NCBI GenBank assembly: GCA_946497905.1
Contig: CAMMMI010000001.1
Span: 1 to 54,139, forward strand
Reading direction: 5' to 3'
Length of the DNA: 54,139 nucleotides
DNA from: an uncultured Clostridium sp.
GTDB taxonomy: Bacteria > Bacillota > Clostridia > TANB77 > CAG-508
Shown here: positions 5,998 through 22,463 of the stretch, piece after piece
Numbering within the stretch: the stretch's first letter is position 1
How the letters are laid out: every line of letters starts with the position of its first letter
Made by a program: the position numbers and the translations under genes
Notes under the pieces: generated by a model
What the model was told of the DNA's origin: nothing
The model's input: the letters and a program-made list of their open reading frames with translations, nothing else
The model's database searches: none

Positions 5998-6034
5998 TAC
6001 CCTTAGATTACCTGAAAAATAAAAATAAAAAATA

Positions 6035-6070
6035 GAAACCGTTGATATATAATGAATTCAACGGTTTTTG
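6035..6070 (+). terminator. Rho-independent terminator hairpin after the cohesin gene (abuts tRNA-Arg)
   Basis: gaaaccgttga - 12 nt - tcaacggtttt followed by a T-run. Confidence 0.5.
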
Positions 6071-6147
<77 letters not shown>

Positions 6148-6212
6148 ATACAATATATTATAAAGTAAAAATAAAAAAATTTCAATAATTTTAAAAAAGT
6201 TTTCAAAAAATA

Positions 6213-6241
6213 TTGCAAAAATTAAAAAAATATGGTATATT
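6213..6241 (+). promoter_or_regulatory. Sigma-A-type promoter for tRNA-Pro
   Basis: TTGCAA - 17 nt - TATATT with TGg immediately upstream of the -10, about 18 nt before the tRNA 5' end. Confidence 0.5.
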
Positions 6242-6258
6242 AAATAAGCGATTGATTT

Positions 6259-6334
6259 CGAGGCGTAGCGCAGTTGGTAGCGCGCGTGGTTTGGGACCAT
6301 GAGGTCGCAGGTTCGATCCCTGTCGCCTCGACCA
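6259..6334 (+). tRNA. tRNA-Pro (anticodon TGG); its 3' end is the integration site of the IME
   Basis: CGAGGCG acceptor, GCGC D-stem, CGTGG/CCATG anticodon stem, loop TTTGGGA, GCAGG-TTCGATC-CCTGT T-arm, CGCCTCG-A-CCA. Confidence 0.9.
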
Positions 6335-6393
6335 GAAAAAGAGACTTTTTACAAGTCTCTTAATTTGTTTTTTGGCTATTTTAAGCCTTTTTT
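6326..6393 (+). repeat. attL (tRNA-Pro 3' end + hairpin allele A + shared 20-mer)
   Basis: CCTCGACCAGAAAAAG ... AGAGAC-N9-GTCTCT ... GGCTATTTTAAGCCTTTTTT. Confidence 0.75.
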
Positions 6394-6437
6394 CTTTTCT
6401 CAAACTTTTTCAAAATTTCTCTATATTTGTGTTACTG

Positions 6438-6488
6438 CATTCAAAATTACATTCAGATTTCTACAATTGAATGTAATAATTGCATTCA
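6438..6488. promoter_or_regulatory. Candidate integrase arm-type sites, P' arm (4 x CATTCA)
   Basis: CATTCA at 6438, 6450 and 6483 (direct) and TGAATG at 6468 (inverted), all in a WGCATTCAAA / TACATTCAG context. Confidence 0.45.
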
Positions 6489-6528
6489 AATTTTATAAGC
6501 ATATAAATATTTTTTAATTATTTAAAAT

Positions 6529-6553
6529 TAGGAAAGTACAATGTACCTTCCTA
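6529..6553 (-). terminator. Terminator of the leftward IME operon
   Basis: On the minus strand: aggaaggtac-att-gtactttcct followed by a T-rich tract, 27 nt after the ABC gene stop. Confidence 0.55.
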
Positions 6554-6579
6554 ATCGAAAAAACAGTAGATTAAATGTG

Positions 6580-8403
6580 TTAAATCTCTTTTACTAAATT
6601 AAATTCTCCAGCCTTTGCAAACTGTAAGTTTCTAAATGTGTACTCATTAGCAAGTTTACTTTTGAATCCATCAATGTTTTGGTGAGTTGAAATAATTACA
6701 ATTCGTTTTTTATCCGAGTTAGCATACCTCACAATGTACTCCAAAATTTTTTCTGCATCAGCAGAATCAGATTCCGTCTTATCATCAAGACCTGATGTAC
6801 ATTCATCCAAAACAATAACATCAATTTCATCATCTAACCAGTATAGCATCTTTGCAAGAATAAGTCTCTGTTTCTGTCCATTTGAAAGCGACTGCTCAAA
6901 TTGTTTTTCTTTCATCCATTTCCATACATCAAAGCAATTAGATTTTATTTCACACCACAAATGGAGATTCTCTAAAATCTTTTGCATTTTTGCAAGATCT
7001 GGATTCTCATTACAACAGAACAGCTCTTCAAAAATACTCAAACTACCAAACTTCAACTTTTCATCATAGAACAAAAATCGTGATGTCGAGGGTATCTCTG
7101 TACTCTTTTCCAATCTGATTCTTTCGGTTAACATCTTCATAAATGTCGATTTACCACTACCAGATGGTCCGTACAGAATAACAACCTCTCCGTTATTAAT
7201 GTGTATCTGCTTTTTTGAAATTAATGTGAAAGGTTTATCGTTCTCGGATTCCTCCAAATACTGAATCGAGAATGGATTTATTCTTATATTGTCAACAATT
7301 TTAGGTATAGAAACCTTTGCAGATTCATTATGATACACATCTAAAATTAATGACATATCCTTTTCTTCTTTTTCCAGTATGATTAACCTTTCATTGTGAT
7401 TGTTCAAAGTTTCAGCAATTCTGCTAATCTGTCCTAATGCTGTTTCAACAATCAGAAGTGTTGCAGTAATTTCTGTTATAGTAGCTAAATTGATACTACT
7501 CCACTCGACTCCTAACAGATAGAATATTATAATTCCATACTGACTAAGTGCTTCCATTATTGTTACAAATAATCTCGACAAATTCATCTTCTTGTGGAAC
7601 TTTGTAACATTCTCATTGCTCGCAATAACAGTCTTTTGAAATTTATTGATTCTCATATCCAAGTCATCTTTGACAATTACAGGAACACGAAGTAAATCAT
7701 TTACTATCAAAGACTGTTCGTTGTTATACTCTCTGTGTTTCTTATAATATGCTTCTCTATTCAAACTAATATATGCTGAACTAAAGAAAGAAATAAGCAC
7801 AAATATGAAAATCAGAGGAATAAAAACAACTTGTGAAATAGATGTGTTGGTTATTATGGCTACAGCTAGCATAATTATTACACTAATCATTTCAAATACA
7901 TCAAATGTATGTTGAATTTTCTGTCGCCACAGATTTTGCAAATAGTTCTTAATAGTATTTAACACCGATTCATTGCTCATTACTTTATACAATTTATTTG
8001 ATGTGTTATACTTCAAAACCTTATTTGCTGTCTTGCCGATGATTTGACTACCTCTGAATACAATTTCATCCTCAAAAATGAGTTCAAATTTCTTGTTTTC
8101 AGAGCTTTCAAAAAGATAAAATGCTTCCCTTACAACTTGCTGCCCACGATATAACATAAATAATATGATTCCAAGCAAAATCAACCTGTACTCAATCATC
8201 ATGTTTGTCGCTTTAAGCATAAATGCAAAAACAAGGGCGATTACGGTCATTCCCAGATTCATGAAACCCACTTTAAATCCCATCCGCTTTACACTTTCAG
8301 GAATAATGAGCATCTCATCTGATAAACCATATGGCTTGAAGAACTTAATAATGAGATTTATCACCTCCCGAATTAAATTTTTCAATTTTTCCTGTCCTTT
8401 CAT
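6580..8403 (-). CDS. ABC half-transporter-like protein (N-terminal multi-TM domain fused to an ABC ATPase); IME cargo
   Basis: Several hydrophobic helices in about aa 40-330. Walker A GPSGSGKST, signature LSNGQKQR, Walker B VIVLDECTSGLD, H-loop STHQ. Confidence 0.8.
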   Translation of the reverse strand: MKGQEKLKNLIREVINLIIKFFKPYGLSDEMLIIPESVKRMGFKVGFMNLGMTVIALVFAFMLKATNMMIEYRLILLGIILFMLYRGQQVVREAFYLFESSENKKFELIFEDEIVFRGSQIIGKTANKVLKYNTSNKLYKVMSNESVLNTIKNYLQNLWRQKIQHTFDVFEMISVIIMLAVAIITNTSISQVVFIPLIFIFVLISFFSSAYISLNREAYYKKHREYNNEQSLIVNDLLRVPVIVKDDLDMRINKFQKTVIASNENVTKFHKKMNLSRLFVTIMEALSQYGIIIFYLLGVEWSSINLATITEITATLLIVETALGQISRIAETLNNHNERLIILEKEEKDMSLILDVYHNESAKVSIPKIVDNIRINPFSIQYLEESENDKPFTLISKKQIHINNGEVVILYGPSGSGKSTFMKMLTERIRLEKSTEIPSTSRFLFYDEKLKFGSLSIFEELFCCNENPDLAKMQKILENLHLWCEIKSNCFDVWKWMKEKQFEQSLSNGQKQRLILAKMLYWLDDEIDVIVLDECTSGLDDKTESDSADAEKILEYIVRYANSDKKRIVIISTHQNIDGFKSKLANEYTFRNLQFAKAGEFNLVKEI

Positions 8404-12334: not shown

Positions 12335-12580
12335 TCATATAACATCAATCCTTTTTTCCATCTTCCACAGAATATAAGCAATTTTTTGTATTTTTCTTGT
12401 TTTGCCAATATTCACAGATGGAAAATCTGCACGATTAAATATTTCGTTTGTTTTGTTTTCTCCCATATACAAATCTTTTGCTACATCTTTTACAGTTAGC
12501 ATTTTAAATGGGTCATCTAAGCTCTTTATAGCTTGTTTTACTAATTCTTTCTTAAGTTCTTCACTAAAATTTTCATTCAT
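12335..12580 (-). CDS. Excisionase-family / MerR-like HTH DNA-binding protein
   Basis: LTVKDVAKDLYMGENKTNEIFNRADFPSVNIGKTRKIQKIAYILW resembles HTH_17 excisionase-type proteins. First gene of the leftward operon. Confidence 0.65.
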   Translation of the reverse strand: MNENFSEELKKELVKQAIKSLDDPFKMLTVKDVAKDLYMGENKTNEIFNRADFPSVNIGKTRKIQKIAYILWKMEKRIDVI

Positions 12581-12608
12581 AATTTTGTCCTCCTTTGAAA
12601 TTTCTATA

Positions 12609-12839
12609 ATCCATTTTGGATACTTAATAAGTAAAAAAATAAATCTTATTCATATTTTTATTTTTATAGCATACCTCCTTTCAAATTTATCTGTATCCGT
12701 TTTGGATATTTATATAATAATCCAAAATGGATATATTGTCAATACCTTTTTCAAAATTTTTTAAACTTTCTAAAACTTTTATATAAAAAATATTTAATTT
12801 TCAACGATTATTGACTTTCCAAAATGGATATGATAAAAT
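12609..12839. promoter_or_regulatory. Divergent promoter/operator switch region of the IME
   Basis: Leftward promoter TTGACA(12742-12737)-17-TATTAT(12719-14). Rightward promoter TTGACT(12811-16)-17-TAAAAT(12834-39). Four ATCCAWWWWGGATA-type palindromes at 12609, 12695, 12720 and 12817; the last two fill the promoter spacers. Confidence 0.65.
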
Positions 12840-12869: not shown

Positions 12870-13619
12870 ATGACAAATGGCGAAAGAATAAAGTATTTAA
12901 GAGAAAAAAATGGATTTACTCAAAAAGATATTGCTACAAGATTAGGAGTAGAACCTGCAGCAATATCAAAATATGAATTAGATATGAGAGAGCCAAATAT
13001 AGAAGCAATAAAAAAACTAGCTACAATTTTTAATGTTTCAATAGATTATTTACTTGGAAGAACACCAGATGTTTTTGTAGATGAAACAAATAGAGATACA
13101 CTTGATATATCTGCTATTAAAGACAAATATAACTTTACAAAAAAGAGAATGGATAAAGTAAAAGAAATCTATAAAAATGATACTACACTAAGCACAGCAA
13201 TAAACGAATTATGTTGTGGTGTAGGAAAAACTACTTTTGGACAAACTATAACAAATACAAATATTTCAATGCTAGAAATAGAAAGCATGTTTAATGATTT
13301 TGAAAACAGCAAAGATCCTAAACCACAAATTATAATGAAAGTTAAAAATTTAGAAAATAGTATTATAATTGTTGAGATTGATTCTTTTGATGATGAAGAA
13401 ATGCCACTTGATGCAACTGATAGAATTGCTTTATATACTACAAAATTATCACAAAAATATAATGTGCTTGGTTTAGTAATGACAATTGATAAAGATGAAA
13501 ATTGTAAAATTATAGATGCTATATATCAAAAAAATAAAGATACTTATTATACTCAATTACATTTGCCTAAAACAGTATTAACTGCTGGAGAGTATATTGA
13601 TATAATGAGTAGATTATAG
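12870..13619 (+). CDS. XRE-family HTH regulator with an uncharacterised ~170-aa C-terminal domain
   Basis: GAAGGAG RBS. N-terminus MTNGERIKYLREKNGFTQKDIATRLGVEPAAISKYELDMREPNIEAIKKLATIFNVSIDYLLGR is a typical HTH_3. No motif recognised in the C-terminal part. Confidence 0.8.
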   Translation: MTNGERIKYLREKNGFTQKDIATRLGVEPAAISKYELDMREPNIEAIKKLATIFNVSIDYLLGRTPDVFVDETNRDTLDISAIKDKYNFTKKRMDKVKEIYKNDTTLSTAINELCCGVGKTTFGQTITNTNISMLEIESMFNDFENSKDPKPQIIMKVKNLENSIIIVEIDSFDDEEMPLDATDRIALYTTKLSQKYNVLGLVMTIDKDENCKIIDAIYQKNKDTYYTQLHLPKTVLTAGEYIDIMSRL

Positions 13620-13635: not shown

Positions 13636-15312
13636 ATGGAAGATTCAGAACTTAAACAAATATTATTTTCATTATTAAAAAATGATGAAAATGAGTGTAT
13701 AGAATATAAAGAAGCAAATAATAGTTTTGATTTTGAAAAACTCGGAAAATATTTTTCTGCATTGAGTAATGCTGCTAACTTGGTTGGAAAGCAATATTCA
13801 TGGTTAATCTTTGGAATTAAAGATAAAACTCACGAGTTTGTTAATACTAAATATAGAAACAATGGAAATTTGAATAAGTTAAAAAAAGAAATTACAAAAG
13901 GAACTAACGATGGAATTACTTTTTTGGATATTTTTGAATTATTTGTAGAAGATAATAAAAGAGTAATAATGTTTAAAATACCAGCAGCTATGGGAATTCC
14001 CACAACATGGAGAGGATTTGCTTATGATAGAAATGATGAGGATTTAGTCCCTTTAAATCAAATGAAATCTGATCAAATTAAGTCAACAATGAATTTCGAT
14101 TGGTCAAGACAGATTATAGAAAGTTTGACAGTAGATGATTTAGACAAAGAAGCCATTTTAAAAGCAAGAGAACAATTTAAAAAGAAAAATGAAGATAAAG
14201 AAATTGCTAAAGAAGTGGATAATATGGATGATATTACATTTCTAAATAAAGCGAAGGTTTTATTAAATGGTAAAGTGACTCGTACAGCTTTACTATTACT
14301 TGGAAAAGAAGAAAATAGTTATTTGTTTGAAGATTTTATTCCGCAAATAACGTGGAAATTACAAGAGAATGGAGAAATTTTAGATTATGAACACTTTACA
14401 ATTCCATTTTTAGTAAATGTTGAAAAAGCAAAAAATAAAATTAGAAATTTAAGATATAGATATATGGTTAATGAAATAACATTATTTCCCAACGAAGTGG
14501 ATCAATATGATAATTATACTTTAAGAGAGTTATTAAACAATGCAATCGCTCATCAAGATTACAGAAAACATGGTAGAATAAATATATTAGAAATGAAAGA
14601 AAAATTAATTTTTATAAATGAAGGAAGTTTTATTCCTCAAAATGTTGACAAATTTTTACTAGATGAAAGTTATGTTCCTCCATATTATAGAAATCCGTTT
14701 TTAGCAAATGCTATGGTTAATTTAAATATGATTGATACTGCTGGAAGTGGCATAAGAAGAGTATTTAATAATCAAAAGCAAAAATTCTTTCCTATGCCAG
14801 ACTATGATTTATCAGTAGAGGGAAGAGTAAAAGTAACTTTGTATGGAAAAATATTAGATGAAAAATATACAAAAATGCTTTTTGAAAAAACTGATTTAGA
14901 TATTGGTATTGTAATGCTTTTAGATAGAGTTCAAAAAGGAATACATATAGCAAAGCAGGAGTCTGATTTATTAAAAAAAGAAAAATTAGTAGAAGGAAGA
15001 TATCCAAACTTATATATTTCTAAAGAAATTTCAGAAATAACAGATGAAAAAGCAAAATATATAAAAAATCGTGGATTAAGTAATGATATGTATAAACAAA
15101 TGATAGTAGAATTGATAAAGACATATGGTAAAGCAACAAGAAATGAAATAAATGATTTGTTACTTGATAAAATGCCAGAATTCTTATCTGAAGATAAGAA
15201 AAAAAGAAGGATTAAATATTTATTAATTGAATGTTTGCAAAATAAAGAGAAAAAAATAAAAAATATTGGAAGTCGTACAAATTCTATATGGGTTTTAAAT
15301 AAAGATGATTAA
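13636..15312 (+). CDS. AlbA_2 (Schlafen-like) + HATPase_c_4 / RecG-C-like putative DNA-binding protein
   Basis: N-terminus ECIEYKEANNSF...ALSNAANLVGKQYSWLIFGIKD (AlbA_2 pattern). Central LRELLNNAIAHQDYRKHGRINILEMKEKLIFINEGSF (HATPase_c_4 pattern). GGAGTAA RBS 16 nt after the XRE stop. Confidence 0.7.
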   Translation: MEDSELKQILFSLLKNDENECIEYKEANNSFDFEKLGKYFSALSNAANLVGKQYSWLIFGIKDKTHEFVNTKYRNNGNLNKLKKEITKGTNDGITFLDIFELFVEDNKRVIMFKIPAAMGIPTTWRGFAYDRNDEDLVPLNQMKSDQIKSTMNFDWSRQIIESLTVDDLDKEAILKAREQFKKKNEDKEIAKEVDNMDDITFLNKAKVLLNGKVTRTALLLLGKEENSYLFEDFIPQITWKLQENGEILDYEHFTIPFLVNVEKAKNKIRNLRYRYMVNEITLFPNEVDQYDNYTLRELLNNAIAHQDYRKHGRINILEMKEKLIFINEGSFIPQNVDKFLLDESYVPPYYRNPFLANAMVNLNMIDTAGSGIRRVFNNQKQKFFPMPDYDLSVEGRVKVTLYGKILDEKYTKMLFEKTDLDIGIVMLLDRVQKGIHIAKQESDLLKKEKLVEGRYPNLYISKEISEITDEKAKYIKNRGLSNDMYKQMIVELIKTYGKATRNEINDLLLDKMPEFLSEDKKKRRIKYLLIECLQNKEKKIKNIGSRTNSIWVLNKDD

Positions 15313-15345: not shown

Positions 15346-15526
15346 GGCCGAAATTCAAAAAAATCCGGCCGAATTCTAAAAATATTCGGCCGAATTCCGG
15401 ACAAAAATCAGCCGAAATTCAAAAAAATCCGGCCGAATTCTAAAAATATTCGGCCGAATTCCGGGCGAATATCGGCCAAAATTCAAAAAAGTCCGGCTGA
15501 ATTCTAAAAATATTCGGCCGAATTCT
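15346..15526. repeat. GC-rich iteron array: 3 x 64-bp units = 9 x (C)GGCCGAA(A)TTC sites
   Basis: Site starts at 15346, 15367, 15388, 15410, 15431, 15452, 15474, 15495 and 15516, giving spacings of 21,21,22,21,21,22,21,21. Confidence 0.8.
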
Positions 15527-15606
15527 AAGCAGAAATTAATAAATTTAAAATTACAAATTTTGTAAAATCATAAATAAGCTTATGATATATTTTTCAATAT
15601 CCACAA

Positions 15607-15798
15607 TTAATTATTTTTAGTAAGTATTTCTTCTTCATATCCATCATCATATACCCAATGTATGTATTTAAAATCTCCACCAATTCTTGTATATTCATTT
15701 CCACCATCAATTGAACATGCCCCACATTTACATTTTTTATAATCGTGAACACTTAAAGATTCAATTATATCATTACATTTTAAGCATCTAATTTTCAT
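15607..15798 (-). CDS. Small Cys-rich zinc-ribbon-like protein (63 aa)
   Basis: GAGGTGG RBS. CxxC (CLKCN) and CKCGAC motifs. Last gene before the att site. Confidence 0.6.
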   Translation of the reverse strand: MKIRCLKCNDIIESLSVHDYKKCKCGACSIDGGNEYTRIGGDFKYIHWVYDDGYEEEILTKNN

Positions 15799-15869
15799 AA
15801 TTTTTCCACCTCTTATAGCTTTTCTTTAAGACAATTATACAAACATTTAAAAAATTTTTCAATAAAATT

Positions 15870-15896: not shown

Positions 15897-15949
15897 AAAA
15901 ATGTCGAATTGCTAGAAAATAGGTAATTCTCAAAAGTAAATTCTCCTCA

Positions 15950-16017
15950 CCTCGACCAGAAAAAGGAGCTTTTTACAAGCTCCTTAAATTGTTTTTAGGC
16001 TATTTTAAGCCTTTTTT
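15950..16017 (+). repeat. Inter-copy junction = reconstituted attP (hairpin allele B)
   Basis: CCTCGACCAGAAAAAG ... AGGAGC-N9-GCTCCT ... GGCTATTTTAAGCCTTTTTT, flanked by element sequence on both sides. Confidence 0.75.
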
Positions 16018-22204: not shown

Positions 22205-22232
22205 AATTTTGTCCTCCTTTGAAATTTCTATA

Positions 22233-22463
22233 ATCCATTTTGGATACTTAATAAGTAAAAAAATAAATCTTATTCATATTTTTATTTTTATAGCATACCT
22301 CCTTTCAAATTTATCTGTATCCGTTTTGGATATTTATATAATAATCCAAAATGGATATATTGTCAATACCTTTTTCAAAATTTTTTAAACTTTCTAAAAC
22401 TTTTATATAAAAAATATTTAATTTTCAACGATTATTGACTTTCCAAAATGGATATGATAAAAT
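22233..22463. promoter_or_regulatory. Divergent promoter/operator switch, copy 2
   Basis: Identical to 12609-12839 (+9624). Confidence 0.65.

Follow-up and report, generated by a model that had tools for sequence, protein, structure and literature searches.

The element and its genes

The analyzed window, a stretch of 54,139 nt with a G+C content of 26%, is part of a draft genome of 1.63 Mb in 127 contigs. It contains a 9.6-kb integrative mobilizable element of an uncultured gut Clostridia bacterium, which is present as a head-to-tail tandem dimer with a unit of 9,624 bp. The two copies differ at nine positions, all of which are located in the att-proximal 50 bp (6325-6373 versus 15949-15997), and the other 9.57 kb or so are identical. 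Each unit encodes, in leftward direction, an 81-aa protein, a 51-aa ORF, a replisome organizer (Phage_rep_org_N), a tyrosine integrase, MobC, a MobA/VirD2-type relaxase, and an ABC ATPase, and in rightward direction an XRE protein and a 558-aa HATPase_c_4 protein. An iteron array is located separately at 15346-15526. The assumption of the earlier note that the leftward genes form a single xis-rep-int-mob-ABC operon found no support, as tight gene packing is limited to xis-o51-rep-int and is followed by gaps of 200 bp before mobC and of 150 bp before the ABC gene.

The non-coding region 12608-12839 separates the leftward gene for the 81-aa protein (ATG at 12580) from the rightward gene for the 249-aa XRE protein (ATG at 12870). 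It contains four palindromes, O1 to O4, and two divergent promoter matches, PL and PR (Table 1). As a consequence of the tandem arrangement of the two 9,624-bp units, operators and promoters are repeated at +9624, which the earlier note did not mention for this region.

Table 1. Positions of the switch features and of the two genes that flank them
Feature	Position	Strand	Sequence	Description
Xis81	12335-12580	-		81-aa winged-helix protein (predicted); first gene of the PL operon
O1	12608-12622		AATCCATTTTGGATA	In the PL leader; center 36 nt before the Xis81 start codon, about 85-100 nt after the predicted PL start
SD-like motif	12674-12682	-	GAAAGGAGG	About 25 nt into the PL leader; conserved in all relatives
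O2	12694-12708		TATCCGTTTTGGATA	Over the predicted PL start (about 12707)
PL	12742-12714	-	TTGACA-17-TATTAT	Predicted promoter of xis-o51-rep-int(-mob); 11/12 consensus matches
O3	12719-12733		AATCCAAAATGGATA	Fills the 17-nt PL spacer; abuts the -10 hexamer
A/T block	12745-12768	-	CCTTTTTCAAAATTTTTTAAACTT	Conserved; directly upstream of the PL -35 hexamer
PR	12811-12839	+	TTGACT-17-TAAAAT	Predicted promoter of the XRE-cargo operon; 10/12 consensus matches; TG of an extended -10 at 12831-12832
O4	12816-12830		TTTCCAAAATGGATA	Fills the 17-nt PR spacer; abuts the -35 hexamer
XRE	12870-13619	+		Repressor candidate, 249 aa; ImmR-like HTH (residues 1-64), orphan alpha/beta domain (about 70-249)
Second switch copy	22232-22463			Identical; O1' 22232-22246, O2' 22318-22332, O3' 22343-22357, O4' 22440-22454, PL' 22366-22338, PR' 22435-22463

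Operator-like palindromes and predicted promoters

The four palindromes and both promoter matches had been described in the earlier note, and all of them were recovered at the same coordinates, to the base. This includes the location of O3 and O4 within the 17-nt spacers and that of O1 in the leader of the Xis-like gene; the position of O2 over the predicted PL start point had not been mentioned. The sites share the 15-bp consensus WWTCC(A/G)NNNTGGATA. The exact motif TCCRWWWTGGATA occurs at eight places, i.e., at the four sites of both copies, and nowhere else in the 1.63-Mb genome. When up to one mismatch was allowed, 17 matches were found in the window, compared to 1.88 +/- 1.67 in shuffled sequences, and 16 of the 17 represented the eight sites on both strands. 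With a weight matrix derived from the relatives, the eight sites scored 20.4-21.7 bits, while the rest of the element did not exceed 6 bits and the next best site of the genome reached 17.4 bits. The latter (TTTTCCATTTTGGATTA, G000:C118:2177-2193) is the best operator-like site outside the element; it is found on a 4.6-kb contig, a short distance upstream of the start of a leftward gene.

Promoter-like hexamer pairs are not enriched, with 62 pairs versus 69.8 expected from shuffled DNA of 26% G+C. PL and PR, the latter with its additional TG, are among the top promoter matches of the element. Their assignment as predicted promoters is thus based on rank, position, and conservation rather than on the scan itself. 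The -35 hexamer of PL is TTGACA or TTGACT in 41 of 45 versions of the region from related elements (see below), and the -10 hexamer is TATTAT in 35 of the 45. PR is retained throughout the relatives, even in those that have diverged most (L139, L140, and L142). The two -35 hexamers are 68 bp apart. The only other promoter match of the element with 11/12 consensus positions, TTGAAA-17-TATAAT on the minus strand (15834-15862), is located near the right end and directed toward small ORFs at 15594-15798.

The conserved A/T block upstream of PL resembles an UP element, judged from its sequence and position. The SD-like motif in the PL leader is followed by an ORF of only two codons (ATG CTA TAA; ATG at 12672-12670, stop at 12666-12664), and the corresponding ORFs of the relatives have between 0 and 16 codons (e.g., in L139, L015, and L017). 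Motif and short ORF together may represent a vestigial leader gene or a ribosome-binding stabilizer of the 5'-end that resembles the STAB-SD type. An invariant block, GTAAAAAAATAA (12631-12642), adjoins O1 and contains a run of seven T on the transcribed strand, but does not form a convincing hairpin or terminator. A terminator or attenuator between PL and xis was considered and rejected, as the leader has no terminator-like site and its predicted structures are weak and lack conservation. Likewise, a second promoter in the vicinity of O1 was discarded, because the -35 candidates, inspected by eye, were poor and not conserved.

Conservation of the switch in related elements

The four-site layout is present in two congeneric species. 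When species-representative genomes were scanned with the pattern, 57 loci were retrieved. About 43 of these were real and stemmed from metagenome-assembled genomes of gut Clostridia from humans, rabbits, goats, and mice; the others were chance matches in unrelated phyla. A protein-based scan of metagenomes yielded 30 additional loci. The pooled loci comprise 45 distinct versions of the 335-nt region, contributed by about 40 species of gut Clostridia and by metagenomes. Many of these versions are close relatives and hence not independent of one another.

The half-sites TCC (left) and TGGATA (right) are nearly invariant, with 175-180 of 180 aligned sites agreeing at each position, and the central triplet is an even mixture of A and T. 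Invariant half-sites around a free A/T center are the pattern that is expected for the binding of a symmetric dimer. The alignment has clear footprints at the sites, the promoter hexamers, the A/T block next to the PL -35 hexamer, the SD-like motif, and the T-run near O1, and the DNA between them diverges and contains indels. For O2, the complete 17-mer including its odd G is identical in 33 of the 45 versions, and one of the divergent relatives (L139) has a symmetric double change at this site (TCCT..AGGA). O1 is present in most of the versions, at a distance from O2 that varies from 68 to 93 bp.

One could argue that the palindromes are conserved merely because the elements were copied recently, and that they have no function of their own. 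Most of the relatives are indeed close, with xis genes that are at least 90% identical, and this kinship inflates the apparent conservation. However, the surrounding non-coding DNA has diverged and has acquired indels of 9-13 bp while the half-sites remained invariant. Moreover, the sites have survived in L139 and L140, the XRE proteins of which are only 40-50% identical, and they have decayed in the one locus that carries an XRE pseudogene (L125). Conservation by recent copying alone is therefore very improbable.

The distance between O2 and O3 is 25 bp in 43 of the 45 versions and 24 or 26 bp in the other two; it is 25 bp also in the two most divergent relatives. The distance between O1 and O4 is 208-213 bp or 200-201 bp in the 45 versions, which corresponds to about 20 or 19 helical turns and is maintained by compensating indels. 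A helical phasing of the outer sites that would allow looping was considered. The distance in L140 (189 bp) is in agreement with phasing, but that in L139 (184 bp, 17.5 turns) is not, and the O1-O2 and O3-O4 distances have no constant phase. Once L139 and L140 are included, the outer-site distances are thus unphased, and looping is unsupported.

A separate observation was made for the locus L021 (1600-1800), in which a recombination event between O1 and O2 has apparently removed the 86-bp leader. A single hybrid site with an extra T is left, together with a chimeric gene that retains only the first 17 or so residues of the 81-aa protein.

The XRE protein as candidate operator-binding protein

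Two putative DNA-binding proteins are encoded next to the switch, and the earlier note had named both as candidates. The XRE protein has a DNA-binding domain of the HTH_3 family, which is of the dimeric type. Among solved structures, the closest relative of this domain is the DNA-binding part of ImmR from ICEBs1 (7t8i), which was retrieved in a profile search (hmmsearch) with an E-value of 2.5e-17; the Foldseek comparison with 7t8i yielded 44% identity, a TM-score of 0.88, and an rmsd of 1.4. The XRE equivalents of the proposed DNA contacts of ImmR (T17, Q18, K19, S33, Y35, and R40) are invariant in 44 homologues. They are retained even where the C-terminal domains are only 32-38% identical, and in these cases (L139 and L140) the operators are retained as well.

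At six loci, a unit of PR, O4, and the XRE gene is found in other contexts, without the 81-aa gene, PL, and O1 to O3. The genome pattern scan had required O4, so that the remnants retrieved by it are uninformative with regard to the conservation of this site. Retrieval by the XRE protein alone is unbiased regarding the operator, and 23 of the 24 loci found in this way have O4 at a distance of 51-54 nt (in one case 42 nt) upstream of the XRE start codon. The exception is L125, in which a frameshifted XRE pseudogene is accompanied by a decayed -35 hexamer and a decayed O4.

Based on these comparisons, we consider it likely that the operators are bound by the element's own 249-aa XRE protein. The proposal that one HTH protein occupies both promoters remains the best reading of the region, given that the four sites, their positions at PL and PR, and the 25-bp distance between O2 and O3 have been kept in the 45 versions. 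With respect to the two candidates, the XRE protein is favored; the label "Xis-like" for the 81-aa protein appears to be right, but as a probable winged helix of the excisionase family it is unlikely to be the operator-binding protein.

If this second candidate bound the palindromes, either by itself or in the manner of Cro as a second ligand of the same operators, the region would be a true two-repressor bistable switch. The 81-aa protein is the product of the first PL gene and a confidently predicted winged HTH protein, its HTH part shows the same invariance among the elements as the operators, and lambda-type switches are known in which two proteins share the operators. The AF2 model (pLDDT 87.7) contains a helix, a helix-turn-helix, and a beta-hairpin wing. 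Foldseek assigned probabilities of 0.77-0.97 to matches with Tn916 Xis, RdfS, TorI, and BldC, with all E-values above 0.1. The protein has no Pfam match at E <= 0.01, and a few of its homologues carry PF12728. The model looks like an excisionase-type winged helix, and the xis and int genes of the element are part of one gene string.

Excisionase-type proteins bind head-to-tail to direct repeats, and both the fold and the relatives of the 81-aa protein, weak as the Foldseek E-values are, therefore speak against a role at palindromes. In addition, all of 18 homologues with 48-65% identity are encoded directly upstream of a tyrosine integrase and retain the HTH core, but no TCCNWWWNGGA site is present within 1.5 kb at these 18 loci. 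Finally, PR and O4 persist together with the XRE gene where the 81-aa gene is absent. Binding of the palindromes by the 81-aa protein is thus improbable. Covariation of recognition helix and operator was considered as a further test, but both are invariant and offer nothing to exploit. As every intact element encodes the XRE protein together with the 81-aa protein, each with an invariant DNA-binding part, covariation cannot separate the candidates, and their separation rests on the remnants and on the distant Xis homologues.

A different element (L090, G123:C5) has the same architecture with a different operator: a 57%-identical Xis homologue, a divergent gene for a 99-aa XRE protein, and another palindrome, ATTGGAAAATCCAAT, between them. 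The locus L143 (logan ERR13966152_169, 6001-6822) encodes a 273-aa protein with the same N-terminal HTH (MTNGERIKYLREKNG...) and a different C-terminus. This gene belongs to a phage-like string of co-directional genes and is not preceded by an operator, which speaks against the assignment of the sites to the XRE protein.

Remnants and the passenger slot

Several decayed copies of the element were found. Seven loci are remnants, several of them next to a tRNA gene, from which the mobilization half has been deleted and PR-O4-XRE or PR-O4-Fic has been left. One of them (L073, genome G388) has changes in the PL -35 hexamer (TTGATG) and in O3 (ATCT), and its O2 and O4 are intact. In L041 and L065 the XRE gene is deleted, and PR and O4 are located directly in front of a Fic passenger gene.

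A further possibility is that a host factor or another protein of the element, e.g., the replisome organizer, binds the sites, and that they serve replication or recombination instead of transcriptional control. The element encodes a Phage_rep_org_N protein, and origins can consist of repeats close to a rep gene. However, the genome contains no further copies of the motif, which thus does not define a host regulon, two of the sites coincide exactly with promoter spacers and a third with a start point, and the iteron array exists in addition to them. As O4 also persists in remnants that lack the rep gene, such a role is very improbable, and regulation of PL and PR by the XRE protein remains the preferred explanation.

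The slot behind the repressor gene (13636-15312) is a hot spot for passenger genes, as is seen at five of the related loci. At 33 loci, the passengers were Fic proteins with an intact HPFEDGNGRTGR motif (23), two SLFN_AlbA_2/HATPase_c_4 types (9), and a 342-aa protein (1). A linkage between repressor variant and cargo was considered and rejected, as near-identical XRE genes precede Fic or Schlafen-type genes.

The C-terminal domain and induction

In the AF2 model of the XRE protein (pLDDT 89.8), the C-terminal 180 aa form a confidently predicted alpha/beta domain. A search of 1.84 billion representative proteins retrieved 28 hits for this domain, essentially all of which belong to the same family of about 250-aa XRE proteins or are fragments thereof, and none of 399 genomes drawn from across the class was found to contain the domain. 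Beyond the HTH, the protein has no match in Pfam or PHROG. In structure searches the HTH dominates the result for the whole model, and no PDB or viral model covers the C-terminal domain (query TM-scores <= 0.27). The domain diverges faster than the HTH, with identities of 52-89% versus 70-97%, and has been reshuffled relative to the promoter region (G388).

As the earlier note had stated, an ImmA-type metalloprotease is missing, and no Peptidase_M78 was found among the proteins of the element. Three M78 genes (PF06114) are present elsewhere in the genome, on other contigs, and the encoded peptidases could mediate induction in trans. The conclusion that induction must differ from that of ICEBs1 can thus be upheld only in part. 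The missing ImmA and the C-terminal domain are indeed different, but the DNA-binding part is ImmR-like and provides no contrast, and a contribution of an M78 peptidase in trans is possible.

The most attractive, though purely conjectural, reading of the C-terminal domain, by analogy with SaPI Stl, is that of a sensor or of a docking part for an anti-repressor. One specific version would be a receptor for a protein or signal of a helper conjugative element or phage, so that excision and replication would take place only when a vehicle is available. This version is appealing but speculative, and we regard it as rather unlikely.

Proposed mechanism

We hypothesize that dimers of the XRE protein bind to the four 15-bp operators of the 230-bp switch. 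Binding to O3 in the PL spacer and to O2 at the PL start would block RNA polymerase and would thereby switch off xis-o51-rep-int and probably also the mobilization genes from mobC to the relaxase gene. Repression of PL would keep the element integrated and silent. The fixed 25-bp spacing of O2 and O3 suggests that the two dimers touch. Via O4 in the PR spacer, the XRE protein would restrict the expression of both its own gene and the passenger gene that follows. O1 in the xis leader would be an auxiliary site that might act as a roadblock or as an extra anchor. As the element has no ImmA gene, derepression would be expected to operate via the orphan 180-aa C-terminal domain or via a factor in trans.

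This wiring differs from the "lysogeny-like bistable switch" that had been proposed for the locus. Repression of PL in combination with negative autoregulation of PR is not bistable by itself, and no Cro-like or antirepressor function was identified. Bistability would need a counter-acting product of the PL operon, for which the 51-aa ORF is a candidate.

Comparison with known systems

The closest parallel is the ImmR switch of ICEBs1. The ICEBs1 repressor controls excision and autoregulates its own synthesis (PMC6540685); ImmR crystallizes as a dimer and represses Pxis and its own promoter via six sites (PMC8960796). Similarities of the element described here are the DNA-binding domain, the repressor gene that is divergent from a xis-led operon, and several operator sites over both promoters, four predicted sites in this case versus the six of ImmR (PMC8960796). 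Several features are different. An adjacent ImmA (Peptidase_M78) gene is lacking, and the C-terminus of the XRE protein is a 180-aa alpha/beta domain, whereas that of ImmR consists of two helices with the ImmA cleavage site F95-M96. In place of immA-int, the repressor operon contains passenger genes, and the element is mobilizable rather than conjugative. From its sequence, the system would therefore work like the ImmR switch of ICEBs1 but without two of the defining features of ImmR/ImmA, i.e., the adjacent ImmA and the short, cleavable C-terminus.

A second parallel is the repressor Stl of the SaPIs. Stl has an N-terminal HTH and a larger, fast-diverging C-terminal domain, and its gene is divergent from a xis/replication operon. 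It is subject neither to SOS cleavage nor to cleavage by ImmA; the island depends on a helper, and the inducers are proteins of helper phages. The XRE protein shares with Stl the combination of an HTH with a fast-diverging C-terminal domain, the divergent gene, and the absence of ImmA, but a relation of the two in sequence or fold was not apparent. In contrast to the SaPIs, the element is, as predicted from its MobC and relaxase genes, mobilized by conjugation and not by packaging.

XRE-type repressors that act on divergent promoters via several operators, including distal auxiliary sites, are also known from other systems, e.g., the CI repressor of phage TP901-1. A further example is Rco of the plasmid pLS20 (PMC6540685, PMC7641744). 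These two systems have overlapping promoters or use looping by tetramers or hexamers, whereas in the element the -35 hexamers are 68 bp apart and the outer sites are unphased. Antirepressors of both systems are known (Rap and MOR), while none was identified for the element. Lambda CI, finally, binds cooperatively in pairs to OR1 and OR2, two dimer sites on a promoter with a center-to-center distance of about 24-25 bp. The fixed 25-bp distance of O2 and O3 on PL is similar. Apart from their HTH class, the two proteins have no relationship to each other.

Significance

Integrative mobilizable elements are very common, and their excision decision is almost unstudied. A 2017 review of these elements mentions repressors in passing only (PMC5704250), and literature searches retrieved no description of the element family analyzed here. 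The switch is of a classical kind and introduces no new principle; its value comes from the clean model that it offers and from the question which signal the orphan domain might respond to. Most likely, the sites are bound by the element's own ImmR-like repressor, and the switch is an ordinary excision switch apart from the C-terminal domain of this repressor, which was found nowhere else. The analysis provides a complete proposed wiring diagram, with four putative operators, two predicted promoters, and one candidate repressor. The family to which it applies is widespread among the gut Clostridia of humans, mice, goats, and rabbits. If the C-terminal domain were indeed a receptor for a helper signal, this would represent an ImmA-independent derepression of an ImmR-type repressor and, for mobilizable elements of uncultured gut Clostridia, the first regulatory logic to be described.
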